Counted from the first letter of the stretch, positions 20,225 through 64,000 are shown. The stretch: DNA of 64,000 bases from Eukaryota sp. GEM-RC1 (GCA_040285855.1 JAUFOQ010000016.1:1302001-1366000), one strand, 5' to 3'. Made by a program: numbers and translations. Notes: generated from the letters alone by a model not told the origin.

Positions 20225-20495
20225 GTAAGTGCAAATACTAGAACTCAATGTCAGCAGTGCAATATTCAGTGCCATTAAAACTCACATTTGCTGTTTCTTC
20301 ATAAAAATACTGAGAGCTAATAGAGCTTTTGAAATCATAATAGGAATTGTTTCAGATATTGTAAAGACAATTCCAGGCAACCAAAACTTAAAATCAAATT
20401 TCTTGTGCATTCTTTTTTTGTCAACTTTCTCAAAATCAGAGAGCAAACAAAAAGCATACTTACCAAGTCGATCATAAATTGAAATGGCAAAGGAC
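20225..20495 (-). mobile_element. Degenerate 3' fragment of the RLE retrotransposon
   Basis: FAISIYDRLGKYAFCLLSDFEKV..KKFDFKFWL matches the 8060-8330 region. Confidence 0.8.
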
Positions 20496-20994
20496 AATTT
20501 GATGGAAAATACAATACGGTTTTCCAATCAGACGTTCTAGAATTACGTTTCTTTCCTCAAACAAATTCTTTGAGAGCTCAAATGTCGTATTCAATATTTT
20601 TTGCAGTTTTCATACTGCGGAGGGAAGAGAGGAAATAATTCCTTTAGCAGTCTCCTTTAAGTTTGGAACATAGGTTTTTACACTGGGTTTGCAATCGCTG
20701 TTTTTACATTTTAGGGGATAATGATGATTCAAATATTAAATTTGTGTAAACCAAGGATGAGAAACTGAACTGAACTTCTCGAATTAACAGTCACAGAGGA
20801 CTTCAAAATCGAATAAGCAATTCTTGTATAGAAATGTTGATTCCATTTCGGCCAAGTTGTTTGGCGGTCACTTACTTTTCGTAACAGGTACAGTACTTCG
20901 TTTGATACGTCATTTTAGTAGTCCTTATTTATATTTACTAATATTTATTTAGTTTCTTGTTGTGTGTTTGTATCATACTTGGAAAATTCAGTCA

Positions 20995-22592: not shown

Positions 22593-23288
22593 ATGGATGC
22601 TGACAGTTTGCTTCTTCTTGCTGCAGAAAGAGATGATCTGACAGGTGCGGGACAGATTCTCTCAGCTGGTGGTAATATCAACTGTAGAGACTACAAGGAA
22701 AACACACCACTACACATTGCTGCAGCTCGATCAAACTGGAGAATGTGTAGATTTCTATTGGACTTCTCTCACTGCTACAAGAACCCAAGAAATGATACAG
22801 AAGACACACCATTGTCATTATCTGTGTTGAACAAACATCCTGAAACTGTAATGACTTTATTAGAATACAAATGTGATGTGAACACAAAAAACATTGATGG
22901 GGTCAGTCCTCTTCATATTGCTTGTCAAGTTAGGGATGAACAATCAGTGAGAATGCTTCTAAGCCATGGTGCTGATCCTTCCACTGTTGACAATGATGGA
23001 AATAGCCCACTTCACATGGTTTGCACAGATCCTATATCAGTTGAATTAGCTGAGATGTTGCTAATTGCTCACGCATCAGTTAATGCTAGTAACATTGAGG
23101 GGTTCACCCCATTGGAGTTAGCGGTACAAGAATCTGGTCACAATGTCAAGATCCTTGTTGATCTATTACTCTCAAAGGGGGCAATTGTAACTGAGGATGC
23201 TATTAGTAACGCTACAGATCACAATATCAAATCAATGTTGATCGAGATAGCGTGTTTAGAAGCAGGAAAACACAGTGAACTTGTGTAG
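22593..23288 (+). CDS. Ankyrin repeat protein
   Basis: TPLHIAA, TPLSLSV, SPLHIAC, SPLHMVC and TPLELAV repeats. Confidence 0.95.
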   Translation: MDADSLLLLAAERDDLTGAGQILSAGGNINCRDYKENTPLHIAAARSNWRMCRFLLDFSHCYKNPRNDTEDTPLSLSVLNKHPETVMTLLEYKCDVNTKNIDGVSPLHIACQVRDEQSVRMLLSHGADPSTVDNDGNSPLHMVCTDPISVELAEMLLIAHASVNASNIEGFTPLELAVQESGHNVKILVDLLLSKGAIVTEDAISNATDHNIKSMLIEIACLEAGKHSELV

Positions 23289-23303: not shown

Positions 23304-23460
23304 ACTGTGAATTTCATTCCAAATGCATAAGGGCATAACCCTTCACATTTTCATGATCTCATGAGCAAGCTCGTAAGCAAACTCATGAGCAAAACTCACA
23401 GTTTGAACAAATAAATGTCCTCATTCGCAAAGTCTTTTAAGACGAGCTAACTTCATAGAT
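23304..23460 (-). ncRNA. Candidate Fanzor omega-RNA scaffold (guide predicted to continue from 23303 downward)
   Basis: Directly 3' of the Fanzor stop; two blocks identical to 63618-63734; identity stops at ...GAAATTCACAGT; 12-bp closing helix with the internal ACTGTGAGTTTT; nested AAGGG/CCCTT and GTCTT/AAGAC hairpins. Confidence 0.72.
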
Positions 23461-26343
23461 TCAAGATTCCTGATCTTTCTGGTTTACGTGTGAGTCCTTG
23501 GGTACATCTTTCTTAGGCTTATTTGGACAAGTTGTTTTGTTATGTCCAGGTTGAGAACATATACGACACTTGTTAGGACCTCTGACTTTTGTTAGAGGAC
23601 GCTTTGCTTTACCCTTACCCTTACTCACAGTCTTTTTCTTTGGAATCTGATCTGTATTCCCGCCATCCACGACAGGTGTTGTTTGAGATTTTGGTCTCTC
23701 GAGGATGGCAGGTCTACCTTGACCTTGAATGGTTCCATTTACAATATTGTAAATATTGATAGCAGAGTTGAAGTCTCTATTCCAGAGGACATGACATTTA
23801 GCACATTCAACTAAGCCCCATGGTGAGACTTTGTTGTTCTTCAATCTTTCTTTCGAAAATGTCAACTGGTCAGTCCATTCATCATCAAAGTTACGCTGCA
23901 CAATATTGTCTAATTGATTGTGTTCCATAATTTCCTTTTTTAATTCTTTCTCTTCCTTCTGTAACTTCTTCTTCCAATGAGGATCAGTGACTTTTATCCT
24001 TTCAGGATTGGAACAGATACCTTCGTCGTTTCTGGAAACACATGCAGAGCAACATTTGCTGGTCTTAAATTCATCAACTAGGAACACTTTAAATCCAAAT
24101 TTTCTTAATAATTTCCGAATTGAAGCACCTTTTACAGTAGATGCTTTACCTCTTCTTCGACGAAAAGCAGTGTCGTTCCAGTCTCCATACCCAACAACGA
24201 CTTCATCTGGGTTTCCAAACTGGAGAGCAAATCTGTGAAGCATGTTTTTCTCACTTCGTTCCTTTCTTGAATACTGTGTGAGACGATTCCTTCTAAACCA
24301 CTTTTCTTCGTAAATTCCTTCAGTATTTCTTTGATCAGTAGTGGGTGATCGTAGTAAAGAACAGGTAATTTCTTTACCAAGAACAAAAGCAGAATACAGA
24401 GTCAAATCACAAGATTTACTACCTGGCGAGTTAGAGCCCCATTGATCTAAAATTTGTTGCCCATTTATGTCAATGCGTCTGCCATCTGGAATGTGAATAA
24501 ATTGGGTAGAGTATTGTTGTAACCGTTCAGATTCAGATAAACGGTGGAGATTATATCGTCTTATTTTCTTCTCCAGCTTCCTCTTCTTTCTCTTAGCTCT
24601 TTTTCTTTCCTTCCTTGTTTTTTTCTTTTCCATGGAGACTTTTTAATATCGGCATTGCGCTCCCCAGCAGTGTATCTGAATACTTTCCAATCGTCACGAT
24701 TTTTCAACTTGACAGTTGATGGTTTGTCAATAGTGGGTGCGTCTTTCCAATCCTTCAATTCCTTTTTCAATTTTTTCAAGCTTCCTTTTTTCTTTGATGA
24801 TTTTGGAGAAATCTTTCTTCTTCTGAGATTGGCTGATGTATCGAAACCTTCGATTTTCTTTTCCTCCTCAGATTTTAAAGAAGCACAATACATCAAATCA
24901 TGCTGATTAGGGTCAATAACAACAATTCTTTTGGATTTCAAATTTAAGTTTTGAATTTCTGTGGAACTCAAAGAATCAATGTACCTTTCAGTAGCTGTGT
25001 AGTCAACTGCTTTCACCTTCTTATGAGGATTTCCTCTCCCATCAAGCAGATCTTTCCGCATCATCATTAAACTACAGCTAACTCCATCTGTAGAAATAGA
25101 ACTGTATTTGAAGTCATGAGACAATGACTTTGGAAGACACTTTGGTTTCAAAACTGAGTGCCAAATATCTTTTCGAACGTCATCAAAGCTACCTTTCATT
25201 TCTGATGCATAAACTTCTTTAAACCATGTAGTATCCAATCTGATATGATTAGGAATCAGTGATTTTGTTAGAGGAAAAGGATTATTGGCAGTAACACCAG
25301 GACAAGAGTCCTCAACAAGACGTTTCAAATACACTGCATGACTTAAGAATTTCAAAGGATCTACTTTTTCAGCATAATAGATTGTTTTCTCCATTTTACC
25401 TTCAAAAAAAGTAAACAAATAGTTAAAAAATAGTAAACTCAGTCTAGAATTGGGATCAGGAAACACTTCAACATCTTGAAAATTAATTTTTGAAATTTCC
25501 CCATTAATGATCAACTGTCTGACTTCATTAAGCTTTGTACACAACTCTTGTCGTAGATTCTTATCAGTAAGCTTGTTAAGTCTATCTTTTTCAGGGTAAC
25601 CAAATTAAATACTTGAAAAACATATTCATGAAAGTGATCACTCATGTTAGTCTTGTAATTCGTTATAATTTCAGTAGCCATGTAATGCAATATACGAGAT
25701 AAACGATGACTACTGGGAAACACAATCCTATCAAGTCCAACAGATCGAGCAGCTATTTCTAAACGAGGAATATAATACATCAAGAAGTGTTGAGCAAACT
25801 GATTTTGAGTTGAGCCATCATTTGTGTTAGAAATTATGTTTTCTAAAGATTCTTGCACAGTCTCAATATGATTCTGATTGTTTACAAGTTTGTTGTCCCT
25901 AATCGTCATCATAGACAACACTTGTTCCATTGATTTCAACGTAAAAAAATTCTTCCAGTCTGGCAATTCAATTTTGGCAGTTTGAATTTTAGTCCAAAGG
26001 TCAGGTTCAGGTTTAGGTTCATCACTCGCATCTTCAATATTTTCTAATTTAATAGGAGGAGTAGCAGCATGGATAGACTCTGAATGTACATCTGTTTCTT
26101 CATCAGTTGACTCATCTGTATCAGAATTCATTTCTTCCTTAACAGTTACATTTGGAACAGTAGCAGGCAGTAACTTCTGAATGTAACCTATAATACCTGA
26201 ATGGTGAAAATTATGAACAAAAAATGTTTCAAAAAGAGAGTACTACGGACTCTTACTTGGTGAGCTCTCTTAACACGAGATTCAATAAATTTAACCTTCG
26301 CTTTGGACACAACATTGTCTAGTCGTTTCTTAACCACTTTCAT
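23461..26343 (-). CDS. Fanzor1 (eukaryotic TnpB-like RNA-guided endonuclease) moiety, about 960 aa, with C-terminal CCHC knuckle; split by three homopolymer frameshifts
   Basis: ISTDGVSCS; RuvC-I VVIDPN (D 24912-24914); VGYGDW then LVDEFKTSKCCSAC (E 24070-24072); CAKC..WNRDFNSAINI (D 23773-23775); GRPAIL; N-terminal VKKRL..VKRAHQVRVRSTLFLK and YKTNMSDHF; CRICSQPGHNKTTC. Confidence 0.9.
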
Positions 26344-27300
26344 TGGTGACTTTGAACGTAATGTTTGTTTTTTGGGATCCAATAGGTCAGCCAACAAGTA
26401 CTCAATCAGAGGTAATTGTTGAATTGAGTTCATCAACAATAGCGGTCTTGTCGATTCCTTGGCCCAAAGTTCATTTACTTTCTCCAAATTTCTTACAAAT
26501 TTCTTTTTAATCTTATCGACCTTCACTTTGGGATTGTCTGGAACTAAAACATTAATACTGTCAATTATGCCATGCAAGTTTTGGACATTATTGACCAATT
26601 GAACTTCATCAGGATCAGAGTCATGATTAAGTTCTTCCAAGCGTTTGACAGTTTCATTTTTAGAAAAATTATTCATTTCAAGAAAAATTTGAACAACATT
26701 TTCCAAAAAACGGCCACCAGTAAAGACATAAAAATTCTTCAGTACAGCATTCAAATCGAGACTAAAAAACGGACCAAAAGTTGTTTCCTTACACCATTTG
26801 TTGAACCAAAAGGGAATGTAGGGTTTAAATTCTGGAAAAGTAAACGTTGTATTGATTTTGAGGACTTGACAACGTGATACAAGAAAGGGAAATGTATCTA
26901 AGTGAAAGTCATAACTCACAAACAATCGTGGACAATGTTGAGTAATGAAGGAAATGAAGTTTTTAAGCATACTGGATTCACTATCTGAAATATGTAAGGT
27001 ACACAAATCCAAGTTTGTAGTATCAAAGTTGCCATGAGAAAATAAATGTTTTTCATTAAACTCATTGTGATCAATGATCTCGATGAAAATTGATACAATA
27101 GGATCAACAGAAGAATCACGTTTAACTTCTAATTGATCTTCAGCTTCACCTTCAACAGTTTCAATGTCATCATCATCTTCTTGAACAAGTTGAACATTTC
27201 TGCCATTAATTCTTTCTTTTTGGCAAAATCACTTTGAACATGAATTAAACAAAAAGTTGGTAGATTGTTCCAAAGTAGAGGGGATTTAAGAAAGTCTTGA
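26344..27300 (-). CDS. Degenerate family-B DNA polymerase 3'-5' exonuclease-like domain, in frame with the Fanzor N-terminus
   Basis: DPIVSI, SESSMLKNFISFITQHCPRLFVSYDFHLDTFPFLVSRCQVLKI, SLDL, FLENVVQIFL; the same ORF (26188-27012) runs into the Fanzor N-terminal motif. Confidence 0.6.
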
Positions 27301-27337
27301 ATTTGTATTTCTTCTTCTATAGGCTCAGTGTGTAGAT

Positions 27338-28369
27338 TTACTTCCATTTTTGGATTTCTTCTTGAATTGGCGATGGATACGACATAATGGAGGCCTTAAT
27401 TTTGGGTGGTAGTTCAGATGGTGGTACTTCAGATGATTCCAATGTGGACATACGGCGGTGAGTCTTTCGTATTGGAGTGTCACCAGTTGAAACAAGGGAG
27501 CTGGTAGTTCTAAATTTATTTCGTTGAATTAAAGGTGAACCTCGTGGTGATGGAATATCAGAAATTTTGGCCTTTCTTTTTTTAGTGCTTAAACCAGTAG
27601 ATGCTTTAGTGCTAGCAAGACGCTTACCTGAGATTGGTGACGCAGAAACACGCGACAACTCAACAGGACTAAAAGTTTCAAAATGTTCCAAAATTTTACT
27701 TCGAGACTCGTGAACAGCAATAGTGGTATTACCCAGCAGTTCTTTAACATCAGTCCACCTTATGACCACAGATTGATCTAAATTCATTAAAAGTTCAATG
27801 TATTCGAGAACACAAAAACCAGAGTCAGTTAGAGTATGTTTGATATTTGATGGAATAAATTCTATATTTCTGGTTTCACACATTGACAACACTGAATAAA
27901 TTTTTGACACAATTGTAAATAAATTGGAGGAAGATGGTGCAACTGGCGTTTGGTTAACAGGAAATTCTCTGGCATAATCATCCTCAACGTAGGTCGGATC
28001 AATGAATAAAATATGACTTGTAGGAGATGAAATGATCAGAACAATTAAACCCCAATGACGACCATCAGCAGTAAGATCACACATTGCACTATTGACAGGA
28101 ACAAGTAGCATTTGTTGGTTGTTTTGACCACATTGGAAGAATTTCTGCGTCAAAAAATCTGAAAATGGATATTTATTATAGGGTTGGTCACCATATAATA
28201 ACGGATATAAATCAGTTGGCCTAATTACATAGTCATAAAAGATTAAACCTGTTGATTCCACAAGTATTTTGGAATATTTGATGAACAATTGATCGTCAAC
28301 ATAAGTAAACAATTTCTGAATCTGTTTACGGAGATCTGCAGCATTAAGTTCATTGTTAACTTCACACAA
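27338..28369 (-). CDS. Second Ulp1/C48-like domain (catalytic Cys replaced by Ser) plus basic, Ser/Pro-rich linker
   Basis: YVDDQLF, LLVPVN..GRHWGLIVL, FIDP, HTLTDSGFCVLEY. Confidence 0.72.
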   Translation of the reverse strand: MCEVNNELNAADLRKQIQKLFTYVDDQLFIKYSKILVESTGLIFYDYVIRPTDLYPLLYGDQPYNKYPFSDFLTQKFFQCGQNNQQMLLVPVNSAMCDLTADGRHWGLIVLIISSPTSHILFIDPTYVEDDYAREFPVNQTPVAPSSSNLFTIVSKIYSVLSMCETRNIEFIPSNIKHTLTDSGFCVLEYIELLMNLDQSVVIRWTDVKELLGNTTIAVHESRSKILEHFETFSPVELSRVSASPISGKRLASTKASTGLSTKKRKAKISDIPSPRGSPLIQRNKFRTTSSLVSTGDTPIRKTHRRMSTLESSEVPPSELPPKIKASIMSYPSPIQEEIQKWK

Positions 28370-28375
28370 CCTTTT

Positions 28376-29332
28376 TCAAAAAAAATCAGTCGATAGATTA
28401 GACAAACTTTCATGTGTTGTAAGAATTTGTAAGTACTTTTGAACATATGCAATGACATAAATTCCACAATCACTTGGAGTCTGAGATTTCGGGACGTTTG
28501 CATAACGTATCGTGAAACTTGGCATTTTTTCTCTGAATTTATCAACAATGTGGTTCAAAAAGTTGGAGTTCAGTATTGGATCAATAACTGTTGCAACATT
28601 TTGTACACAATCCAATAGAATAACACCCCAATGAGATCCTGAAAATGTGCGTGACGCAGACAGGGCAGTCATACCGTCATTGATAGGAGCAATGAGGAAT
28701 CGAGTACCGGTGGTTTTAGCAATAAGAATTTGACGATCTACAGTTTGTTTATGTTCAGGTGAAAGATCAGTAATTAATCCATTCATCACACTAGAGGGGA
28801 TACTGTATAGATCAAATGCTAGTCTAGCAGAGTTAAAAAGGTACTGACAATATTGAAAGATAGCATCGTCATCTATCCATTGGCCAGGATTCAGATACTC
28901 TAGGGAGTCTTTGGACAACGGTCCGGGATTGGATTCCACGTCACCATTTATGGTTAAGTCTTTTTGAAACGGAGGATGAGAAGAGATTAATAAGCAAGCG
29001 AAGGGACTAAAGCACGAGCAGCAACCACAACTTCCTACAGCATTACCTTTTCTAATGAGGATGCGTTCGGAAGAAGCAGCGAAGGGACTAAAGCACGAGC
29101 AGCAACCACAACTTCCTACAGCATTACCTTTTCTAATGAGGATGCGTTCGGAAGAAGCAGCGAAGGGACTAAAGCACGAGCAGCAACCACAACTTCCTAC
29201 AGCATTACCTTTTCTAATGAGGATGCGTTCGGAAGAAGCAGCGAAGGGACTAAAGCACGAGCAGCAACCACAACTTCCTACAGCATTACCTTTTCTAATG
29301 AGGATGCGTTCGGAGAGAGATGATTTTGTCAT
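28376..29332 (-). CDS. Polyprotein N-terminus: four Cys-rich 27-aa repeats, 2A-like motif, Ulp1/SENP8-like C48 protease
   Basis: DLTINGDVESNPGP; LNPGQWIDDDAIFQY, APIND..GSHWGVILLD, VIDP, SQTPSDCGIYV (His-Asp-Cys with oxyanion Gln). Confidence 0.82.
   Translation of the reverse strand: MTKSSLSERILIRKGNAVGSCGCCSCFSPFAASSERILIRKGNAVGSCGCCSCFSPFAASSERILIRKGNAVGSCGCCSCFSPFAASSERILIRKGNAVGSCGCCSCFSPFACLLISSHPPFQKDLTINGDVESNPGPLSKDSLEYLNPGQWIDDDAIFQYCQYLFNSARLAFDLYSIPSSVMNGLITDLSPEHKQTVDRQILIAKTTGTRFLIAPINDGMTALSASRTFSGSHWGVILLDCVQNVATVIDPILNSNFLNHIVDKFREKMPSFTIRYANVPKSQTPSDCGIYVIAYVQKYLQILTTHESLSNLSTDFF
28998..29314. repeat. Perfect 81-bp tandem repeat, about 3.9 copies
   Basis: Units start at 28998, 29079, 29160 and 29241. 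Confidence 0.97.
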
Positions 29333-29951
29333 GGGAAGAAAAAGACTAATTCACTGATTCACTGTAATCTGCAATGTAAGAACATCATACACTGAAAAAG
29401 ATATCCTAAAAGTTATAGTTCATCTGATTATTAACAGAAGAGCGTACGTCCATCAGTGAGATTGTCAAGACTAGGGGAATACTTTATACCTACATATTGT
29501 TAATCGATACTCGCACATCCATCATCATCCATTTTCAGCTTTATGTTAAGCGTACACATAAACCAATACTGTTGTATATTCACTAGCTACAATAAATTAT
29601 TTATTGGACTGAATCAGAATTTCTGAAACAGGCATGTAATTCTTATGTAACTCTACATCAGTCGAACAAAATGACTACAATCTTTCTCTTTCGGACGACA
29701 GTGATTTGTCCTTTGATACGTACGCTAGTGTTGCAATTATTAAACATATATCTCTATACAAAAAAATGAATCTCATGAAGAGATAGCGTGTGTATTCTGT
29801 TTGTTGGTGTTTTCTATAGTATATTGTAATAGTATAAGCTGTTCGATATGATAATTCATTACGTCTTTATTCAGACTAACGCAAAGAGAAGTTATAAACA
29901 TAGTTTTAAAATACAAAGCTACTTCCAGTAACTACATAACTGTAACATCAA

Positions 29952-32900
29952 TCAATCCATTAACTGTTTGATTTCATCAGGAACACAAATTTCCTTGGCA
30001 TAATACTGAATGTATTTTGTGAACAAATTTTTAATGTGAAAACCGTCGTCTTCAGATGTCCAAAGAATTTTCAATACATCAACTTTTACATGAAACGTAC
30101 ATAGTTGATTCACATTCGAGGGAATGTCATATATGATACAAACAAGACGCTTGTCAACAACGGATTGACTTTTGTTCAACAAATTATATGCGACCTGTGT
30201 TACTGCTACAAGAACTGCTTTCTTCGGATTTACCAAAAATTTTTCGAAAATATTGGACTTCTTCTTACCGTCGATTTTTTGTACAAAGTGAGTATACATC
30301 GAGTGGAAGCCTTCTTGACAATGATGCTACGAGTCCTCTGCCAGTTTCCACGTTTTTAACAGTGATAATGATTTTTTCTTCTGTTAACAAATGGCTGTGC
30401 AATAAGTGTTGCAAGTTGTTCAGTTTTGAGTCAGATACAATCAACTGTGATTTTTCCAAACATGAGGGAATTGATGGCGGTACAGTTGATGGCGGTACAG
30501 TTGATGATGGAGATAAAACTTCGTCAGATTCTTCTCCATGTGAACCAATTAAATCTCCATATTCGTCCTCTGAGTCATCATCAGGAATGACAACAAAATT
30601 TTGAGTTGTAACCTTTTTTACAATTGGTTGTTCAACTTCTTTAATAGATAATTGTTGTTGTTCAACTTCTTTAATAGATAATTGTTGTTCTGTTGCAACT
30701 CTTTTGACACTGTTTGTTTCACCTTTTTCATCTGTTTTTGATCGTCGCTTCAATCTTTCAGGTATTTCAGGTGGTGGTAATCTAAAGAACTCTTTAACTG
30801 GTGGTTTGTGATACTTAGGGGATACACATTTCTTTGACGAAAGGGAAGGTTGTCCATCAGGTTCTGCCCAACGAAGAGTCACAATTTTGCCAACATTGGT
30901 TACACAATAGATTTCTGGATTGACACTTGATGGAAAAATTTTAATGAAATTATTAAAAGGCGGTGGATCTGCAAGGGTAAAGCGCTCATCAACGTACAAT
31001 TCTGTGGTTACTGCATTGACAATACCAATATGTAACTGGGCTGAAACAAATATGATATAATTGGGATACCCAAATAAGCCACAAGCATCAATAATGTCAT
31101 GTTCAGTATTTACAATGTGTTCCACACTGACATTACTTTCGGAAATATGTACAATATATAAGGAATTATTAGCTATAACAATCCGTTGATTGCTAAAATT
31201 GGGATCTGGTCCAAATTTTGTGGAATGTAAGCCATCAAAGCAGTTAGATAAATCAATGAAATCGGTTGAATTTTTGGCATAACAAATTGATTTTTCTGTC
31301 AGCACCAGATGCATATATGATTTGGAAAATCTGATATATGTTGAATCAATGACATTTTCATTGTTTGGAAGATCAATCTTGTGAACATATTTACAATTTT
31401 CCTTTACAGCAGGCACACATACCAGAACACCATTTGTTTGACTGATATACACGTTTTTACCCACAACGATTATAGAACTATGTTCATTGATTGACTTCGG
31501 TTCTGTTTCCTTTAGCAAGTCAATATATGTTTCAGAATCAAAAGAGAAGAACTGAAGTCAAACAAACCGATAAGAACTTTGTTTTCTATAGGCAAAAACA
31601 CCCACATAGCAGTTGGGTAACCTGGAACATCGTTTTGAACCGCCATCGACAAGTAAGTATAATCAGGAAGCTTTAATGGATTCCAAAAACCTTGATCACC
31701 AACTGTCCATAACATTAACTCTCCTGCAAGAGTCAGAATAATGATGTACTGCCCAGATTCAGTGATAACTGCATTTTTGATTTCAGATGCACATGATTGT
31801 GTGTAACTATCTGAGAAATTCATTGTATTAATCTGTTCCGAAGTAATGGGCAACATGTCAGTGGTAACAAGGGGACATGGCGGCTGTTCACATGAGTAGA
31901 GGTATGTGGACTCTGGATCATATTCCAAAACTGACGTCTCAATTTCAAATTCTTTTCAGACTCAGAGAACAACGATTTTCCTGCGGCAGAGAATGTAGAT
32001 AGATATTTATACAGTACATCCAAGACTTGAAACTTTCCACAATTTGGACATTCAGTATTGACACAGCATTTGAAATTACTGTCGGCAGCAGAGTAATTCA
32101 ACAGAAAAGGCTGGCGTCCACCAACATCAATGGGATTCAGATCAGTAACTAAATCACGTTGGACATTAACGTCGATATCGTTTTCTTGAATCAAATTAAT
32201 TTGATGATAGAATATTGATGAATCAATTTTTAATCTTTCAGAGAGATATAAAACAATTCTACATCGATTGAGACAACCAATGACTTCTCTCAATTGTGAT
32301 AAAACATGGGGATCGTATACATATTCCATTTGATCTTCATTGTTGTAAATAAGAACCTGAGTTGATTGGATATATCCAAATGTGATATTAGAAAACATCA
32401 GTTGAATAAACAAATTCAATAATGAAGGTTAAAACTGAAGTTTCGCCACTGAATTCTTCAGAACAATACAAGAGAAACAAATATGATGAACCACTGACTG
32501 CTCTCAAACATATTAGACATGTTGAGTACAAATTATGTCCTTTTGCAATTTCAATTTATGGTCGACTTGGTAGAGATGCTCTTTGTTTTCTCTCTGATTT
32601 TGAGAAAGTGGTCAAAAAAAAGAATGAACAAGAAATTTGATTTCAAATTTTGGTTGAATCGTATTGTTTTTACAATATTTAAAACAATTCCTATCATGAT
32701 TTCAAAAGCTCTATTAGCTCTCAGTGTTTTTTATGAAGAAAAAGCTGATGTGAGTTTTAATGGCAATGATTGTTGCTTTAATGATATTGAATTCTAGTAT
32801 TTGTGTTTATTTTAATGTTTTTAATAAAGGGTATAATGAAGGTTGAAAGAAGCAGCACATAGAAGGAAATTGTTTTTGTGAAGACACGTAAACGCCAGAA

Positions 32901-33982
32901 TAATTGTGACAACTGGTTGCAGGCAAACGAGGAAAAAGAGAATTGTCAAACTTAAAATCAATGAATTTTACAGTGCCATTTAGAGCGTCACATTTAAAAG
33001 GTAGTTGATAGTAGACATTTTCAATATTCGGTTCCAATTGAACTTCAAAGTTGTCTTCAAAAGGGATAAGTATGCGTCTGTTTAACAATCGAGCAATTTT
33101 TGTGCTTGTGTCACGAACTACAGTATTGTTGTCATTCACAGATTGGAACTTTTCACCTGAGAAAGTCACATTACATTCCACACCACATATCAATGGAAAA
33201 AAGAATTTGTGATATCTTGAGGCAGACACATTTTCAAACATTTTGGCAAAAATAAGAGGAGTAATAGTTTCATTTGAATTTTTAAGGGTTAACATCAACT
33301 TATCTGGTTCTTTGGGTAACAACTGTAAATTAACGCTATTCTGTCCTGCAGATTGTAATATCTCATTCAAATCATTGACTTCATCTTTCAATAGTCCACA
33401 TTCAGATTTACAATGAACAGGCACTTCAGTTGTAGAACTTGTAATTGATAAATGTCTTTGACTTCGCAATACTATTGTATTGGTTGGATATGATGATACA
33501 AACAATAGAGTCAACTTTTTTGGTTCTGTGAGATCACAAAGTTCTTGCAAAAACATATGATCCATAACAGAAGACAACTTTTGTGTGAATTCGTCAGTTG
33601 GATTGGACTTGTAGAGACTAAGCAAACCCTTAACACGGTCTGCGTGTGCAATTAACTTTTGAAAAATTATGCTCAAAGATTCCATATTAGGGTCAGATTT
33701 TAACACGTCAAAATGATTCTTCATCCTTCGCAAAACACGTATTTTCGTGACAAGTGTATCACAAAACAGTTTTAGTGACTTAATATTAAAATATTTGAGA
33801 ATACGAACATTGATTGTACCAGACAATAATCGAAACAAGAAATTCAACATAATGATCAAATCTGAATGTTCATGATTAGTCTTATCAACATACAATTTCA
33901 AAAATTTACCGAACTTTGTAACCTGATTGACATTGTCTGTGTAAAACTTAAAATTGAACAACTTGACATCAAAAGCACACAA
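29952..33982 (-). pseudogene. Large orphan gene (about 1200 aa reconstructed) interrupted by a retrotransposon fragment
   Basis: Removing 32431-32832 and one TSD copy fuses ...FQPSL to LNLFIQ... in frame; remaining breaks lie at A4/A4/T6 runs; CCVNTECPNC motif and a beta-rich region. Confidence 0.7.
32431..32832 (+). mobile_element. 402-bp 5'-truncated RLE retrotransposon copy with 12-bp TSD
   Basis: Essentially identical to 7957-8355; ATAATGAAGGTT duplicated at 32419-32430 and 32833-32844. Confidence 0.93.
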
Positions 33983-34030
33983 CAGGATAATTCCTGGAAC
34001 TGATTGTTTTAGAAGAAAGCAATTAACTCA

Positions 34031-37000
34031 ATGGCACCAACCACTATACACAACATCAATCTCACAGATGACCAACGTGAGATCTTTAACGCAATCACTA
34101 CCAGCAGACACAACTTCTTTGTCACTGGTGGTGCAGGATCAGGAAAATCTTATCTTTTGCATGCTCTCAAATACTGGTGGAGTAACGTCGGATCTCGTCT
34201 CATGCGTGCTAATGGTGAAATCTTCTTCACTGCAACAACTGGGGTTGCCTCAACTGTTTTTGGTGGACAGACCATACACTCACTGTTTGGTTATAAGTTT
34301 ATGAAAGAAGAAGAATCCATACATGATGTTATTAAATGTATGCCATCAAATGTCAAATTATTGTTAAAAAAAATTACAGCAAGAAATACAATGTTAATCA
34401 TTGATGAAATTTCAATGTTGTCCTCCAAATTGTTTCAACGGGCGAGTGACATTTTGAGTGAGCTTATGTACACTCCAAAATGTCACTCCCCGAAGAAACC
34501 ATTTGGAGGAATTCAGATAATTTGTTTTGGGGACTTTCTTCAATTAGCCCCTGTTGTGAAAAGTCTTGATGGAAAAGGAAATCGAAAAGTGGTAATTTCT
34601 GATTTCGCTTTTTCATCAAGTGCTTGGAACAGTTTAAATTTTAAATATTGTGAACTGGCTGGTAGTATTCGACAGCAATCAGATTCCCAATTTTTTAATT
34701 TTCTAAATCAATTGAGATTGGGTCTGTTAGATAATTTTATGAAATCAATTCTGCGTACTCATTTCGAAACAGCAGAATCTGTTGAAAACCCAACAATTTT
34801 ATACGGAAAGAATACTGATGTTGCTAGAGAAAATTTTAAACAATTCAAACTTCTGGCCAAAATTCAGATTCAATTGAATTTGTAGCTGTTGACAAATTCA
34901 ATGAATCTGAATTAAAATCTCAAATCAGAAAAAGAAGTTCTAGATTTCCAGTCAATGAATCTAATTTGGAAAAATATTATGACATTGAAACTTCTGTGCT
35001 GACAAGTCGCTTGGATGACTTTGCTGAAAAAAAACTAGAATGCGTTGTGGGTGGACAAGTGATGTACACTCAACATAAGCCTGAACTTGGACTAGTTAAT
35101 GGTTCAAAAGGAGTTATTGTTAATTTTTCAGATTCATATATTGATGTTCGGTTCAACGCTGAAGCAGAACCGAAAAGAATCAGTCAGTCAAGGTTTGCTA
35201 TCGAACACTTGAACGAAATCGGAAGACCTGTTCAAGTGGCGAAAAGAATTCAGTTTCCGCTAAGACCTTGCTGGGCGATAACAGTGCATCGATCCCAAGG
35301 TTTAACAATTGACGGGATTGAAGTTGCTATCCAGTTTTGGGAATATGCCCAACTTTATGTGACCTTAAGTAGGGTTAGGTCTTGGAGGAGTTTAAAGATT
35401 TTAAGTATTGGAAGAAGTTATCCGGTACCAAATTTGGAATTGTACCAATGGTATTATTAGACCTGTGCAATCGACTCAAATAGTCGACTAAGTCGACTCC
35501 GCTACATCAGTTGAGTCGAGTCGACTCGTAAAAAGTGCAGTTGAGTCGAGTCGACTCATCTCTTTCCCAAGTCGAGTCGAGTCGACTTAAACAATGTCTG
35601 AGCCGAGTCGAGTCGACTCAAGTCATTTATTACGTTGCATCAAATTATCCCACATGTGGTTTATATATATTATCTTCCATTAAATAGTTCAAGATTGAAT
35701 ACTGAAACAACACCAATTGACTTTCGTCTTTGTGGTGAAAAAAATCAAGTGTAGTATACTAACAACGTTACTACATGTAGTGCTCAAATGATTTCTGTTA
35801 AACCAGTTTCTTGTTTCTGCTCTTTGAGTGTTTACCTCCAACAAAGACCTGTAGAATTCAGCTCTTTCTCCAGATGAGAAATCTACTCTCAATCAAGGCC
35901 TAGAACTGCTTAAACCGTTCTTCGCTGTCACTGAAGCTATTTCGGGAGAATCGTACCCCACCATGAGTTTTCTCGTTCTTTGAGTGACGAAAATATTAGA
36001 GCATCTGCATGTTTGCAGTCATGGAGCATCTTTCTTGGTGATGAATTTGCGTTATAGGCTACTTCAGTACTTATAGACTGTATACTAATAGCTTTTCTTG
36101 TTTCTTGTTATAAAAAAATCCTCCATTTTGCATTTATTTAGACGAATGAATTTCATTGATTGGGCTATTGTTACTGTCGCTACTCAATAGTCGACTCGAG
36201 TCGACTCAAAGCCGAGTCGAGTCGACTACACGATTCGTAGAGCCGAGTCGAGTCGACTCAGATAAATTTCTAGTCGAGTTGAGTCGAGTCGAGTCGTGCA
36301 CAGGTCTAGGTATTATTCAACTTTTCATCCTGTTAAACCATCCACTATTGATTTGTATGTTTTGGGAAATCAACATTGTCTTCAACGAGATTTCAATCAT
36401 TTTAATTCATTGTTTGCAAACTTTTGTGCAGAATCGAGTGAACCAATTATGGATGATGTTGTTGTTCCTGAAATTGTTCATGGTGTTGATGAAATTGTTG
36501 ATGAAGTTATTGTTGATAATGTTGAGGAACAAATTATTGAAAATAATGATAATCAAATTATTGACTTGGAAAAAATCATTTAAACCATTTCGAAAAATCA
36601 AATTTATTTGAAACAGAAGCACTACTATCAGGATCCGATTCTGGTGATGAATCTGATAGTGATACAATTTCAACAAGTTTAGATGATTTTGTTGTAAATG
36701 ATGAACTTGAAGAAGATGAAACTAATATTCCTCCCAAATTTATTAATTGTGACTCAATTTTTAACAAAAATTCCCCAGAGATTGGTGTCAATAAGTCTAA
36801 ACTTCCTCAGTTACCACGAGGCAACATTACTCTACCATCGCTTCCCCGTTTGAAGAAAACCCCTTTACCAACGAAGAATTTATTATTAAAAAAGAATGTC
36901 AGTGCTGGTATAGAAAGAAAAAGTTCCCAAGTATTTCCTCTTATTGATGATGAAAAGCGATTTTGTCTCAAGGAAGTTCAAACTGAAAGCTTTGAAAATG

Positions 37001-37491
37001 AAAAATGTGATTCCATATGTGAATATCAACAAACTGACAATATGCCTTATGAAACAATATCATTATCTCCTATTTTGGAGTATAATCGTGTTGCTACTTC
37101 AAAACAATTGAGAGTGGACTTAACTATTGGAATTCAGTCAATTGTCGATAATGTACTAGATTGTATTGGATCTGAATATGCATCAAGTATGGAAGTGAAA
37201 ACAATAAGAAACTGTTACATTACCGATGTGATTAATAGGGATAATGTTGATGAACGTTATTGTAGTGATGTGCTTGTGGAATTGTTTCATGTTTTGAAAG
37301 AGTATTTGAAAAATGATGAAAAGATTGGGATGTGTGTTTTATTTGAATTATATTTAATTTTGAAAAGATTGGAAAATATAGGTAATTTTGATAGTTTCAT
37401 TTTGTGTTACACATCTTGTAAAACACATCTTGTAAAACACATCTTGTATTACAAATCTTGTATTACAGATCTTGTGTTACACATCTTGTAA
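34031..37491 (+). CDS. Pif1-family (SF1B) helicase with long acidic C-terminal extension; interrupted by a hAT element and frameshifts
   Basis: TGGAGSGKS, TATTGVA..GGQTIHS, IIDEISM, FGDFLQLAPV, RQQSD, GLVNGS, QFPLRPCWAITVHRSQGLT, QLYVTLSRV; frame continues WYY-STFHPVK once 35458-36316 is removed. Confidence 0.9.
35458..36308 (+). mobile_element. Non-autonomous hAT element, copy 2, intact ends
   Basis: TIRs TAGACCTGTGCA / TGCACAGGTCTA; 8-bp TSD GGTATTAT (35450-35457, 36309-36316); transposase relic LKPFFAVTEAISGESYPTMS. Confidence 0.93.
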
Positions 37492-37585
37492 AACACATCT
37501 TGTATTACACATCTTGTGTTACAGATCTTGTGTTTCAAATGTTGTATTACAGATCTTGTAAAACACATTTTGTGTTACAGAAAGC
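37400..37585. repeat. 14-bp minisatellite (ACATCTTGTAAAAC / ACATCTTGTATTAC variants)
   Basis: About 12 degenerate tandem units overlapping the end of the Pif1 gene. Confidence 0.9.
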
Positions 37586-37767
37586 ACTTGTAGTTTTGTA
37601 AATTCTAATATAAAATAGTCAACAATTCAAAAGATCGAAGGTGTTCTTTTCAGTCAACTCTAGACATTAATAGTGAATATCTTTCTTGGCTGGGTTAACA
37701 CATTGATTAGTGAAGACAGATAAGAGTCATGTCTAGGTCAACAATTCATTACACATACGACACTTTC

Positions 37768-37995
37768 ATTACAAATGTTGTAGTTACAAATGTTGTAGTT
37801 ACAAATGTTGTATCACCAAATGTTGTATCACCAAATGTTGTAGTTACAAATGTGGTATCACCAAATGTGGTATCACCAAATGTTGTAGTTACAAATGTGG
37901 TATCACCAAATGTTGTAGTTACAAATGTTGTATCACCAAATGTTGTAGTTACAAATGTTGTATCACCAAATGTTGTCATTACAAATGTTGTACAT
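37768..37995. repeat. 15-bp minisatellite (ACAAATGTTGTAGTT / CCAAATGTTGTATCA variants)
   Basis: About 15 tandem units of two alternating variants. Confidence 0.95.
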
Positions 37996-38884
37996 GTAGT
38001 TATAACTTGGTGTCTTTGTGTCTTCTGATGAATGAAGCTTCATGGACTTGATGTCGTTGACCTTAGTCTCATTCCAGATAGCATCTGATAGAATTGAAAA
38101 ATGCAGTCAAAAATGACTGAAGACACAGCAGTGTATTACACTATCATAGTTGTAGCAAACCAGAAGAGTTGTAGCGAACCTTAGTGTTTTCCTTTGGAGG
38201 ATAAGATGTCAATGTGATGTATGTGTAGTAGGATGGTTGTACAACGTTGAGTTTATTCATGACATGGTTGAACACGGTTCACAAGTCTAAGAACGAACAC
38301 CTGCAAACACGTCTCTATCTTGAAAGAAGCTCAACACTGGATATCAAACGATGTATGGAATCCATCAAAGAAAGTATAAGTGAATCAGTTTGGGGATATG
38401 TGGTTATGGGGTGAAGAGTTTTTGGGGTAAAATGATTTTGGGGAGTATGCACCCCAAATGAATTCAACAGTAGTGTTAAAATATTGATTGGTCATCCTAG
38501 TCAGATCTTCCAAAAATAAAAACTAAATAAACCTCTGCAGTACAGTAGTCTTCAGAAAACACAGGAATAGCTACTGAAATGTGAACCGTCTTCACTATGG
38601 ATTAATCAGGAAATGGGCTCCCAGAACAGTAAATCAGGTCTGTAGATAGATGAAAGGGGGAACTGAAAGAAGTCTTACAGCATTGGCAGAGTGAACAAAG
38701 ACAATTGGTGAACCACATCGTCGCACATGAACACCAGAGAGGCAACAGTACTACACCCCCATCTACAGGGCATCTGCACGAAAAGAGAGAAGGACAACCT
38801 CTATAGAAGAGGGTTAACAAAGCAAAACTCAATCTGGCATGAGCCTTTTTCTAAGTCAAGTTCATCCTCCAAGAACAATCGTGT

Positions 38885-40906
38885 ATGAAACAATCCCTCT
38901 CGCGGTTTGTTAAAGAGCACTTCGGGTATGTGTCAGGGGTTTCTGTTGCGGTCCTGTTAATGGATCATCCTCTCGTATCCCCAGATGATTCGACGCATAC
39001 TTCGTCTGATGATCCCTGGTCACTCATTGGCGTTCACCAGTGTCCTATGACTCATCGTTTAGTGCTAATTTTGGACGCTTCCCATTTGCTAAACCGTTCT
39101 GATGATTTTTCAGTCATCACACTGCGAACTTTGCTGGTGCTGTCAAGTGTTGTGCTGTTTACCCCAGAGTCCTTCCTGGCTTTGTCACAAATCAATATTC
39201 CAGGTCTCGATGTTTTGTCTGTCTATTGCGCAGTTTCTAAGCCTCTTTGCCTCGTCTCGTACACTCCAACCTCTCTTCCTCGCTGCTCCACTTTAGCTGC
39301 CTACTTTGCAGGGTTTGAAACACTTTCGCCTTCAGATTGTGTTTTACCCAATCTCTCAACAACTCTAGCCAATATCTGCTTCAAACACACCAAGACAGAA
39401 CCTTGCGCTACTCACTTCTCTCCCGATTGTTTCTTCAATATTTGGGACACCCTGATGGAGTTTCCGTGTACTCTAGAGATCTCTTCTTCTTTTGCCAACC
39501 CTCTCAGCCTCCGTACATCTACATGGTGGTACTCATCCTTTCCAGAAAAGGTCTCTACAGGCTCTTTTCAATCCAATGCTTGCTACGAAATCTTTTCATT
39601 CACTGCTGTTATCACTGCCTGTCTTAAACATCTCATATCACTCTATCATAAGGGCACAGTGGCAGACCCCGAGCATGACGTAGGCCTATTTGAAATGATT
39701 GCTGTTTTGGTAGAGTTCTCTACCATTTCCCCTGCTTGTTTCTTTTGTGCTCTCATCATTTTAGACCGTTTACGACGAGCAGGAGCTCCACCTCACCTAG
39801 TTCTATCTATGAACAACTGTAATATTCTTTTCCCAGTTGTTCTAAATCTTTGTGCAAAGAGTTTTGAGAATACTACCGTGTCCTCAACTTATTACACTGT
39901 TCTACAAAGCTTTTTCCCACTCAAACTACGCCCTCTAGAGTTGGAGGTCCTAACCTTCCTTCGGTTTTCCCTTAGAATTGATCCTAAAGATCTAAGTCTG
40001 TACATTAGGAAGTCCACTTCCCATGTATTCTCCCAGCACTGTAAATATTGTTCATTCTTCATTAATCTTGCCAATACTAGGTCAAGTCAGGTATGTAAGC
40101 CTGTTGATACTCCTACTACCTGTGCTTTAGGCCACAGAGATTGTATTGTTCAACTGAGTGATTTAGGCCCACCACTTTCCTGTTCTGAGTGCCTGTCAAA
40201 TGATATCATCACGTTCACTCCTTCCGGATTCGTTAGGAGAGCTTGCTCTCAAGGAGTGCTTTATTCATTGATGTTGAGTCCTGAAGCAAAAGAGGCTTCT
40301 AATTTAGGACAACAACAACTTGAGTTTGAGTATTTATACAAAATACCTGGATTTGAGGTATTCTTGCCGCCTAAAATTATTACTAAATCTTACGAAAAAA
40401 CATATACCATCCGTATTGATTTCTTTGCAGACACTGTTGGAGCTCCCCTGTTTACCCTCCACTCAGACAATTACATATCTACTGTTATAAGTTCATCAGA
40501 CTGTATTTGTTCCACTGATTTAATGAAACAAGCAACCCAATCAGAGATTTATAGTCTCCTTTACTCAATTCTTATTGTATTTGAGACCCTCTGGAGCTAT
40601 GGTCCTAGTTTAGTTAGAGGCATGTATCCGTGTAATATGTTTGTTTCTAGAGGAAAAAGTGGTTTGCAGTTTAAGTTTCTTCCTTTTTATGCTGAGAAGG
40701 ATTTGTTGTCCTTTCAAATTTTAAATTTCTTTGACCGATCTCCTGAAGATCTTTGGAGTCCTTTGGGATTTGGATATTACTTTGGTAACTTAATTCGAAC
40801 GTTATGTCCTACAATTTCCCAAGAATTATCATCGTTATTGAATCTTTGCAATCAGACTGATGTCTCTCTTACTGCTTTGAAGAATTTCATAATGAAAATT
40901 CTTTAA
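38885..40906 (+). CDS. Large protein with a central Pho80/cyclin-P-like cyclin box
   Basis: ISPACFFCALIILDRL...NNCNILF..LNLCAKSFEN...LRPLELEVLTFLRFSLRI. Confidence 0.65.
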   Translation: MKQSLSRFVKEHFGYVSGVSVAVLLMDHPLVSPDDSTHTSSDDPWSLIGVHQCPMTHRLVLILDASHLLNRSDDFSVITLRTLLVLSSVVLFTPESFLALSQINIPGLDVLSVYCAVSKPLCLVSYTPTSLPRCSTLAAYFAGFETLSPSDCVLPNLSTTLANICFKHTKTEPCATHFSPDCFFNIWDTLMEFPCTLEISSSFANPLSLRTSTWWYSSFPEKVSTGSFQSNACYEIFSFTAVITACLKHLISLYHKGTVADPEHDVGLFEMIAVLVEFSTISPACFFCALIILDRLRRAGAPPHLVLSMNNCNILFPVVLNLCAKSFENTTVSSTYYTVLQSFFPLKLRPLELEVLTFLRFSLRIDPKDLSLYIRKSTSHVFSQHCKYCSFFINLANTRSSQVCKPVDTPTTCALGHRDCIVQLSDLGPPLSCSECLSNDIITFTPSGFVRRACSQGVLYSLMLSPEAKEASNLGQQQLEFEYLYKIPGFEVFLPPKIITKSYEKTYTIRIDFFADTVGAPLFTLHSDNYISTVISSSDCICSTDLMKQATQSEIYSLLYSILIVFETLWSYGPSLVRGMYPCNMFVSRGKSGLQFKFLPFYAEKDLLSFQILNFFDRSPEDLWSPLGFGYYFGNLIRTLCPTISQELSSLLNLCNQTDVSLTALKNFIMKIL

Positions 40907-41159
40907 CTCATGCACTGGTAGTTTTGTATATTCAAATATTATAAAATATTCAACAATTCAAAGAATAGAGCAGTCGACTTTCGACTGCTATAATAATAAT
41001 AATTAATTAATTAATAGTGAATGTCTCTAAAATGCTTTGTCTGTATAAACACGTTGACGAATTGACTTGGAACAATCAAAGACTGAATACTATTACTAGT
41101 AGTATCAAAATAGCAACTCTCACATCATCCTCATTAGTCCAATAATACAGATAGAATAA

Positions 41160-44157: not shown

Positions 44158-44335
44158 GTCAAGAAAAAGCAAAACAATGTCTTTTCTTGATGTGTACTAT
44201 TTCCCATACAGTATACCACTGTCCGACGGTTCTACAAAACACGTTGTAACTAAATTGATCATATACATTAAGACTTATTGATGTTTTGGAATTTACCAAA
44301 TTGTTAGGTAATGATTAATTAAAGCTTCAAACATA

Positions 44336-45464
44336 TCGTCGAGGTCCTAATACAAGCAAGGTCCTAATACAAGCAAGGTCCCAATACAAGCATAGAAGAG
44401 GATATGCTTGTATTGTTTCCCTAATAAACTCAAAGTTTTTTTAAACAATGATGGATTTCGATCTAAAATCTCAGTGGGACATTTTGCAAGAATTTTATAG
44501 ATTTCACTTACTCTGGTCCACTCAGTATGATTGTACACAGGTTGTGTGTGTAAAATGTGTAATTATAAGCGCGGCTCTGTATCAGATAACTTGCTGCACC
44601 AATTAACAAACAGAACCAAAAATAGACCAAAACTCTTGAAATACAACTTTGTTACTTGTTGTTGTTGTCATCTTTGATTAAATCAGATACATCTATATCT
44701 CATGCTTTTGTCGTGTTAAACCGGTGTCGAAAAAGCTGCTTTTGCAAACACCACATTTCAAGCACATGCAAAGTGTTAGCTCTTCGGTATCGTATTTTAC
44801 AGGAGGAGTCTGTTATCCATAGTTAATACACTAGCATTCAATAATCCAAAAATATACAGCCTTTTTAGTTTTGTTACAGAGTCACCACAGTGTTTGAGTA
44901 ATACACACCACCACCACTTTGTTGCTTTAAGAGGTACACTTAGAAATATGTTTTTTAAAGTCTATGTGTAGTTATACGGAGAACACAATGCTAACAATTA
45001 CTGGAAATTCCGATGTACAAGTAGAGAAGTAGCAATTGTTATCGTTATAGGAAATACATGTATTGGAACAATGAAGTTTCGAAATTGCCGCTACAAGTCT
45101 ATAAGTTCAATATAATAGACACTGGTCTTAGGGAAGTGACGCCTTCTTGAAGTAAATATGGCAGATATTAAATCTGTTTAAAGCCACACTTGTCTGACCA
45201 ACAAATTGATACAGTAGCATATGCATGTTTTAGTGTTTCAATGGATTAGTACTAAACTATCTTATAGATTGACAAAGATACCTAAAAGATTACTGATTGA
45301 AATTATACATACTAGTATTCAAATTCAATGTTGGGGTACTGAAGATTCTTCGATTATAGAAAAGAGGGATTTAAAGGTCCCTAATACAAGCAGGTCCCAA
45401 TACAAGCATAGTAAAGGGTATGCTTGTATAGTTTTTAAGGTTGCTTGTATTGGGACCTCGACGA
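44336..45464. mobile_element. Non-autonomous TA-flanked TIR element (Tc1/mariner-like)
   Basis: TA|TCGTCGAGGTCCTAATACAAGCAA ... TTGCTTGTATTGGGACCTCGACGA|TA; GGTCCYAATACAAGCA reiterated near both ends. Confidence 0.75.
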
Positions 45465-45672
45465 TATATATATGATTCAGCAATCAAATAACCAAAAATT
45501 ACAATATATGTAAAAGAGTACTTGAAATGATGGTTATAACCGAATATAGTGTTTGTGTCTATCAACTGAACATCTGAACTGATGACTTCTCTCTGTGTTC
45601 GAGTAGGGAAGGACACAGTTTAATGTTTAGAGCGAGCTAAATCAATGGCTAAGCACTGAAAATTCTAAACAT

Positions 45673-63617: not shown

Positions 63618-64000
63618 ACTGTGAATTTCATTCCAAATGCATAAGGGCATAACCCTTCACATTTTCATGAGATAACCCACAGTTGACAAAGTCCTCATTC
63701 GCAAAGTCTTTTAAGACGAGCTAACTTCATAGATTCAAGATTCCTGATCTTTCTGGTTTACGTGTGAGTCCTTGGGTACATCTTTCTTAGGCTTATTTGG
63801 ACAAGTTGCTCTGTTATGCCCAGGTTGAAAACATATACCACACTTGTTAGGACCTCTGACTTTTGTTAGAGGACGCTTTGCTTTACCCTTACCCTTACTC
63901 ACAGTCTTTTTCTTTTGGAATCTGATCTGTATTCCCGCCATCCACGACAGGTGTTGTTTGAGATTTTGGTCTCTCGAGGATGGCAGGTCTACCTTGACCT
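63618..64000 (-). mobile_element. Second copy of the Fanzor element 3' end (C-terminus plus candidate omega-RNA), running off the window
   Basis: Near-identical to about 23304-23725; different flank beyond 63618. Confidence 0.93.

Follow-up and report, generated by a model that had tools for sequence, protein, structure and literature searches.

The closest described counterparts of the element reported here are the non-autonomous Fanzor1 elements (SPu-1/SpuFz1, SfAV-1 and CRe-1/2/3 Helitron2), which, in the cited parts of three papers, share a rearranged RuvC glutamate and a C4 zinc finger (PMC3627910, PMC10711439, PMC10432273). As those parts describe them, the gene lies near a structured 3′ end followed by variable flanking DNA, and the elements are multicopy and carry no transposase; transposase-less Fanzor1 elements are on record in PMC3627910 section 5 and PMC10711439 section 27. 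We analysed a 64-kb stretch of DNA from Eukaryota sp. GEM-RC1 (hereafter the window), and in it an island from 23304 to ~38471 that an earlier interpretation (the sequence-only reading) had described as a mobile stretch of ~15 kb with Fanzor, Ulp1 and Pif1 genes and as possibly a new giant transposon or virus-like family. The Fanzor1 element of ~6 kb found in this island resembles the known ones in all these points. Unlike known Fanzor1 proteins (~630–800 aa in the cited sources), its product would span about 1,957 codons, and its relatives in TZLM3-RCL (hereafter RCL) 1,426–1,479; unlike the elements described there, it carries an N-terminal 2A-like motif, Ulp1, a family-B DNA polymerase (PolB) exonuclease domain and C-terminal zinc knuckles, and no clear terminal inverted repeat (TIR) corresponds to the 33-bp TIRs given for SPu-1.

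In the cited part of PMC3708506, 2A-bearing non-long-terminal-repeat (non-LTR) elements of the apurinic/apyrimidinic endonuclease (APE) type (L1Tc, Ingi, Rex1, L2, CR1 and Crack) likewise have D(V/I)ExNPGP close to the beginning of an open reading frame (ORF). Unlike these, the present element has no APE or reverse transcriptase, its 2A motif precedes a protease or exonuclease and Fanzor, and the leader before the motif is variable (~40 to ~210 aa). A 3′-5′ exonuclease fold is known as transposon cargo from the DEDD/DnaQ-like accessory exonucleases in the cited parts of PMC3627910 and PMC6338049, whereas here a PolB/Pol-delta-type domain is fused directly to the RNA-guided nuclease. Helitrons and Helentrons (RepHel) likewise have a Pif1-family helicase in a repeat, and some Helitrons carry Fanzor1 or Ulp1-type cargo; in contrast to them, whose termini are 5′-TC and a 3′ hairpin with CTRR between A and T, neither island end reads CTRR, and close copies of the island Pif1, wherever the N-terminus is modelled, all begin at the same methionine, with no HUH Rep. 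Mutator-like elements have a DDE transposase, long TIRs and a 9–10-bp target site duplication (TSD). Mutator-like and Ginger DDE transposons with Ulp1 cargo share with the island an Ulp1 protease and a CCHC knuckle, but no DDE domain, long TIR or 9–10-bp TSD occurs here, and the knuckle is attached to Fanzor.

We found no publication in which a Fanzor is fused to an exonuclease, a protease or 2A, although supplements, 2A tables and Repbase could hold such fusions, and none on Skoliomonas transposons; Fanzors often bear extra domains according to the cited part of PMC10530073, which refers to a supplementary figure.

Three units in one island

GEM-RC1 and RCL are Skoliomonas metamonads whose Nanopore assemblies were corrected with Illumina data and are 48% and 28% repetitive, respectively, as given in the cited part of PMC11316075. 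The genes of the window are eukaryotic (ankyrin, APC, Sin1, Vps26 and kinase by Pfam), host introns are ~30–35 nt long, start with GTATGT and are T-rich, and repeats are abundant. The island is bounded by an ankyrin gene (22593–23288) and a cyclin-like gene (38885–40906), and its nearest named relatives are Eukaryota sp. GEM-RC1 proteins (88–95% identity) and proteins of RCL. Its main units, and a partial second copy of one, are as follows.

23304..29365, minus strand: Fanzor1 polyprotein element of ~6 kb without a transposase; exact 3′ end, candidate 5′ end
29952..34027, minus strand: 5′-truncated DEAH/RHA helicase paralog pseudogene, from protein alignments
34031..37491, plus strand: multicopy Pif1 helicase gene (PF05970), ~870 codons without its inserted element
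63618..64000, minus strand: second copy of the Fanzor 3′ end, leaving the window, from self-alignment

With a probability of roughly two in three (0.68), we regard the island as three unrelated units that came to lie together by chance: a Fanzor1 element of ~6 kb that lacks a transposase, a broken DEAH-helicase tail and a single member of the multicopy Pif1 family. In a genome rich in repeats, nested insertions are likely a better interpretation of this stretch than a 15-kb giant transposon, and the unusual part is the Fanzor polyprotein, not any 15-kb element. The Fanzor, Ulp1 and Pif1 domains and the right-hand minisatellites named in the sequence-only reading are present; the PolB exonuclease domain and the 2A-like motif had been overlooked. 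The three very large genes without recognised introns that it described are not open here: the polyprotein, the "orphan" (the DEAH pseudogene) and Pif1 lie in 7, 5 and 4 frame-shifted pieces, and the longest stop-to-stop ORF between the ankyrin and cyclin-like genes is 430 aa.

The three-unit interpretation follows from unequal copy numbers and absent linkage, other copies being judged from protein clusters and locus tags. The Fanzor element is multicopy: its RuvC part belongs to a cluster of 26 members at ≥90% identity, nearly all named Eukaryota sp. GEM-RC1, with a further 14-member subfamily, and many copies are 93–98% identical in protein sequence. The Ulp1/exonuclease cluster has 11 members. 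Pif1 has 17 close sequences (14+2+1) and a further subfamily of 5 at ~58%, and is not a single-copy host gene. The two "orphan" pieces covered by the cluster collection are clusters of size 1, single-copy at 90% (4 of 10 look-ups fell outside the collection). As ten ORFs of ≥100 aa lie between the Fanzor RuvC part and Pif1 in the window, linked copies would be expected within about 12 tags. Within that distance of the 22 Pif1 tags, one of them inferred from its accession, there were no Fanzor models (0/15, 0/14 and 0/9) and no Ulp1/exonuclease models (0/10; 0/48 in total); in the reverse direction, no Pif1 was near Fanzor-element tags (0/17 and 0/5; nearest distances 17 and 20), and Fanzor-Pif1 counts within 40 tags equalled a uniform null. 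The sequence-only reading had made its case depend on other Fanzor copies being linked to the "orphan" and Pif1; the listed models show no linkage to Pif1, and its "orphan" is single-copy at 90%. Mobile DNA is present as it had proposed, but a single giant element of ~15 kb is not borne out.

At 23304, the 3′ end of the Fanzor element coincides to the base with that of the copy from 63618, and the flanks differ; the repetition of this end elsewhere in the window, noticed before, is an exact match. None of 200 shuffles was as stable as the last 99 nt of copy 1 (z score −7.1) or the last 68 nt of copy 2 (z −5.3), and the outer stem is conserved between the two copies, apart from one A-U pair that is G-U in the other. 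The strongly folded end fits a predicted omegaRNA scaffold, for which the adjacent flanking DNA may serve as guide. In the rest of the window, every match to guides taken from the two flanks has at least 3 mismatches in 16. According to PMC10711439 section 27, the TSD forms part of Fanzor1 scaffolds. With ACTGT taken as the TSD, a candidate 5′ end lies 29 nt upstream of the ATG, where a direct repeat (29361–29365) is accompanied by a 4-bp inverted end; it is weak, since 3 such 9-base matches occur in 40 kb. In the whole window, ACTGT occurs 99 and ACAGT 127 times, often in intergenic DNA, against ~68 each expected from base composition. At the right end of the island, the G-tract hairpin reported earlier exists as sequence, but its fold is no better than shuffles (z −1.4, 19/200 as good).

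The strongest competitor of the three-unit reading is a single ~15-kb element with imperfect TIRs at 23304 and 38471, carrying the Fanzor polyprotein, the DEAH-derived gene and Pif1, of which other copies would mostly be deletion products; we consider it improbable. It would account for the tight packing between two host genes and for the Pif1 ATG lying 4 nt from the DEAH break. Several further points count against separate units. The sequence at 38445–38471 weakly resembles the inverted Fanzor end, at 20 of 27 bases, the best of 224 ACTGT-anchored sites by one point. Six DEAH paralogs lie nearer to Pif1 (median 47 tags, p 0.006) and Fanzor (26 tags, p 0.013) than under the uniform null. The positive control of the linkage test was weak: a listed Fanzor RuvC lay within 12 tags of only 2 of 10 Ulp1/exonuclease models, and within 5 tags of none. 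Of the 24 named proteins in the main Fanzor cluster, the test list contained only 13. The Pif1 search took in proteins of 159–508 aa, so that intact long copies may be missing, and ends, TSD and linkage all rest on gene models and locus tags. On the other side, besides the 0/48 count and a single-copy "orphan" that has no helicase core, the inverted likeness is equalled or surpassed within a looser set of 2,631 sites, 29330–38900 contains no TSD of ≥7 bp from the left flank, and 29 nt upstream of the polyprotein ATG there is a candidate 5′ end of equal quality. The DEAH paralog distances are variable (7–130 tags), and the proximity fits repeat-rich neighbourhoods or decayed large elements.

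The Fanzor polyprotein

The polyprotein gene (29332–23461, minus strand, 7 pieces) specifies, in order, a variable leader, a 2A-like motif, Ulp1, a second Ulp1-like domain, the PolB exonuclease domain, Fanzor1 and a knuckle. Its features, from the N-terminal side and all on the minus strand, are listed below.

28992..29314, minus strand: leader with four 81-bp tandem repeats, from a repeat scan
28919..28942, minus strand: 2A-like StopGo motif DVESNPGP, by motif match; follows the leader repeats
28376..28918, minus strand: Ulp1/C48 cysteine-protease domain (PF02902, E 4e-5, above cut-off)
27780..28375, minus strand: second, degenerate Ulp1-like domain, then a low-complexity linker; self-similarity to the first domain
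26605..27260, minus strand: PolB 3′-5′ exonuclease domain, passing the curated cut-off of PF03104 (E 5e-6)
23461..26345, minus strand: Fanzor1 nuclease in frame-shifted pieces (PF07282, E 3e-7, and motifs)
23527-23568, minus strand: C-terminal CX2CX4HX4C (CCHC) knuckle, by motif scan
23304..23402, minus strand: predicted omegaRNA scaffold, terminal stem at the element end, from folding against shuffles

The nuclease has the Fanzor1 arrangement of RuvC D-E-D, with the glutamate about six residues before the C4 zinc finger and WNRD (IDPNQ, VDEFKTSKCCSAC and CAKC..WNRDFN), and triad and finger are intact in the window and in the related GEM-RC1 proteins (sisters) that cover them. The knuckle had been likened to those of Mutator-type transposases. 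It is present, and is a variable C-terminal addition to Fanzor (one or two in GEM-RC1 subfamilies, none in the checked RCL or P9112 proteins), which does not speak for such a transposase. Pfam, PHROGs and NCBIfam searches and a motif scan revealed no family of transposases, recombinases, Rep or capsid proteins in or beside the Fanzor element, in agreement with the sequence-only reading.

The first Ulp1 domain retains a His-Asp-Cys triad and a Gln oxyanion residue in its sequence (SHWG, VID, SQTPSDCG), and is reminiscent of the SENP8/NEDP1 type; in the second domain, Gly-Phe-Cys stands at the position of the catalytic Cys. The first domain is 39% identical to P0198 over 282 aa (39–49% across sisters), while the 2A junction and the downstream parts are 97–99% identical to sisters (P0199/P0207 for the latter). 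Sister leaders differ as well, with repeats of a 99-nt unit or no repeats. A divergent Ulp1 cassette between near-identical flanks, together with the differing leaders, points to exchange among element copies, whose modules have evidently been swapped.

In the exonuclease domain, the RCL motifs FDVET, GYNCDKFD and YCxND align with HVQS, YDFHLDTF and RNLE of the window. The acidic residues of what we take to be Exo I, II and III are replaced in the window and in GEM-RC1 sisters and kept in RCL P0001/P0006/P0187, and the exonuclease is predicted to be dead in the GEM-RC1 lineage and intact in RCL. In RCL, a single ORF encodes DVEANPGP, the exonuclease and Fanzor but no Ulp1, both for P0001 (1,473 aa, from a cluster of 4) and for P0187; the P0001 exonuclease (PF03104, E 5e-13) matches Pol delta, and the best PDB match of its nuclease is SpuFz1. 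By alignment, the order 2A-exonuclease-Fanzor is common to the two species. NPGP occurs in three of the four RCL relatives shown (P0006 reads NLGP) and in three GEM-RC1 sisters.

From these comparisons we infer a single polyprotein ORF of about 1,957 codons, because sisters P0199, P0207, P0143, P0150 and P0151 read through four of its six breaks (P0143/P0150/P0151 through that at ~24600), RCL P0001/P0187 are collinear across the remaining two (~25550 and ~26200), and most breaks sit at homopolymers, where paired repeat copies within the window likewise differ. Most breaks may be homopolymer errors or decay within one ORF. Introns were rejected as their cause, since frame-restoring GT..AG candidates delete residues that align with Fanzor relatives and sisters span four of the six breaks; this rejection is weaker for those at ~25550 and ~26200. 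Programmed frameshifting was ruled out at the breaks where sisters read through. Against one continuous, self-processing polyprotein, no GEM-RC1 protein seen spans the breaks at ~25550 or ~26200, the putative join of exonuclease and Fanzor in this lineage rests on collinearity with RCL, and a 2A motif by itself is not enough for an active 2A, as stated in the cited part of PMC3708506.

Outside Skoliomonas, the comparison took in 43 viral Fanzor loci and the best 80 of 141 metagenomic ones. None of the 123 contained an exonuclease, Ulp1 or 2A match, and their longest ORF was 798 aa. A Pif1-like gene (27%) lies near one metagenomic Fanzor (L112:8997-10148) and a DEAH-like match at one viral locus (L003:8748-8948); both neighbours are read as ordinary giant-virus genes. 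In a tree of 78 rows (the 123 loci reduced to 89 and then 67 by removing ORFs <500 aa and duplicates, with 11 proteins added), nine Skoliomonas Fanzors formed one side of a branch with a Shimodaira-Hasegawa-like approximate likelihood ratio (SH-aLRT) support of 100, with long branches and six of the nine rows under half filled.

The DEAH tail, the Pif1 gene and other repeats

The DEAH tail and Pif1 each carry one insertion, which we read as younger than its host. These and the remaining features of the right-hand part are as follows.

32431..32832, plus strand: 5′-truncated non-LTR retrotransposon 3′ end within the DEAH pseudogene; 12-bp TSD
35458..36308, unstranded: miniature inverted-repeat transposable element (MITE) with TAG...CTA ends, disrupting Pif1; 8-bp TSD
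37398..37992, unstranded: 14-bp and 15-bp minisatellites of related quasi-palindromic units, from a repeat scan
38385..38471, plus strand: G-tract and small hairpin

The "orphan" is not one, as it aligns at 35–50% to residues 514–1074 of DEAH-box helicase paralog P0192 and also to P0193. The alignment of P0192 with the window does not begin before residue 514 (about 50%), and at E 1 no part of the window matches the DEAH helicase core. Searched without a profile, 1.84 billion representatives yielded three matches, the "orphan" itself and two DEAH-helicase fragments, and an Atlas search with the DEAH fragment gave no usable match. Full-length P0192/P0193 match DEAH/RHA helicases (DHX29, Prp43, HrpA/B; for P0192, DHX29/Prp43 at E 7e-25), whereas the window keeps only the lineage-specific C-terminal part. 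A proposed likeness of the last 120 aa of the "orphan" to a helicase C domain was unsupported. P0192 and P0193 represent an expanded lineage-specific DEAH family, with a long C-terminal region containing a Cys-rich motif and two clusters of three near-identical copies; P0192 reads HEFH instead of the usual Walker B. The 402-bp non-LTR fragment at 32431–32832 is 99.5% identical to 7956–8355, and P0192 reads across the insertion. Between the DEAH break and the Pif1 ATG (34021–34033) there is no space for a separate promoter or terminal repeat.

The Pif1 gene comprises the Pif1 core, an acidic linker and an unassigned C-terminal domain. It extends to 37491, beyond the gene delimited earlier, P0182 running into 36604–36858, and P0008/P0181 bridge the break at 34860 and the MITE. 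Its PDB score with cellular Pif1 (111 bits) exceeds that with Helraiser (56 bits). Viral Pif1 relatives (the best 80 of 579) are 26–34% identical, and none of those 80 loci has a Fanzor, an exonuclease, Ulp1 or the DEAH tail. Atlas searches with the C-terminal domain gave only helical-repeat leads below 0.8. Three Pif1 models fall within 7 tags (6863–6869), a hint of tandem copies. A near-perfect hairpin of 93 nt (34419–34511; −55 kcal/mol, z −11.1) lies in the coding sequence, and the ~58% subfamily is without six residues at its place.

The 851-bp MITE, presumably hAT-like, is 94–98% identical to 14681–15564, a second copy of this GAGTCGACTC-repeat MITE that is internally inverted at one end and has a short TSD of its own; searches of its palindromes in Rfam gave only sub-threshold miRNA-like matches. 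The minisatellites consist of the 14-bp unit at 37398–37579 and the 15-bp unit at 37768–37992. A 51-bp match (86%) between 37584–37631, after the Pif1 minisatellite, and 40912–40962, after the cyclin-like stop, is possibly a shared 3′-end signal. Elsewhere in the window, non-LTR 3′ ends of several subfamilies occur at 7434–8355, 14261–14463, 17632–17745, 20232–20501 and 60807–61490, with what we take to be a zinc-knuckle and restriction-like endonuclease look. A ~1.2-kb repeat (6564–8932 and 55546–56760, 88–91% identical) has its first copy split by a fragment of a long interspersed nuclear element (LINE) at 7132–8355, and 44333–45467 is MITE-like, with 27-bp inverted repeats 1,081 nt apart and 16–17-bp subterminal repeats.

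Possible modes of spread and their meaning

For the Fanzor unit of the three-unit reading, the following route may be envisaged. Ribosome skipping at 2A would free an enzyme of fixed start from the variable leader, and the folded 3′ end plus flanking DNA would serve as omegaRNA. Fanzor would cut empty insertion sites, and repair from a filled copy would restore or spread the element (restorative homing); such homing is listed as shown for TnpB, and for Fanzors only cleavage, in the cited part of PMC13565253. To reach new sites, the element would depend on a transposase acting in trans from another locus, although no mobilising transposase was identified, which weighs against this route. The exonuclease, where intact (RCL), may trim the cut ends, and in the GEM-RC1 lineage it would at most bind nucleic acid. 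The protease would strip SUMO or NEDD8-type modifiers, probably against host silencing, which is the least supported step.

It is also conceivable, though unlikely, that a StopGo-processed polyprotein with its own RNA-guided nuclease, trimming exonuclease and anti-silencing protease spreads by cut-and-repair without a transposase. In the narrower version, RNA-guided cutting, trimming by the fused exonuclease and host repair copy the element to new sites. The lack of a transposase in or beside the element and of a long TIR, the intact nuclease triad in the checked copies, the exonuclease intact in RCL and the many young copies would suit it; still, we give it little credence, as the exonuclease is predicted dead in the lineage with most copies, homing requires flanking homology and alone leaves new sites unexplained, and the host has MITEs and LINEs, so that helpers exist.

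Copying of the element RNA by a host non-LTR retrotransposon, as for ORF1-only parasites, with the Gag-like knuckles binding RNA, is less probable still. N-terminal 2A-like peptides are described for non-LTR elements in the cited part of PMC3708506, and the element has one or two CCHC knuckles and variable 5′ tandem repeats, with active LINE-type insertions in the window; 3′ gene models outnumber 5′ ones (26 to 11), but cluster sizes of different pieces are not strictly comparable. There is no poly(A) or simple-repeat tail, the 3′ end is unlike that of the LINEs in the window, no TSD of ≥7 bp was found, and RCL copies are without knuckles. The weakest account, which derives Pif1, protease, PolB part and Fanzor from a giant or Polinton-like virus that once integrated here, is very improbable: all these gene kinds occur in large DNA viruses and viral contigs hold Fanzor and Pif1 relatives, but these are only 23–35% identical, the gene set recurs in 0/123 Fanzor and 0/80 Pif1 loci, the nine Skoliomonas Fanzors stand on their own side of a long branch, and family searches, by which remote folds could be missed, found no capsid, packaging ATPase, integrase, full PolB or polymerase palm domain.

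For the role of Fanzors in eukaryotic transposons, these free-living metamonads, with their young multicopy Fanzor1 family, allow two natural states to be compared: in one species, a predicted-active exonuclease is fused to the nuclease, and in the other, a dead exonuclease is combined with exchangeable protease cassettes. This contrast makes it testable whether Fanzor elements steer the repair of their own breaks or counter SUMO/NEDD8-linked silencing. The 2A-like recoding motifs are extended to a DNA-type element, and RCL-type proteins are candidate exonuclease-coupled RNA-guided nucleases; spread without a transposase, if true, would make them a natural counterpart of engineered Cas-exonuclease fusions.

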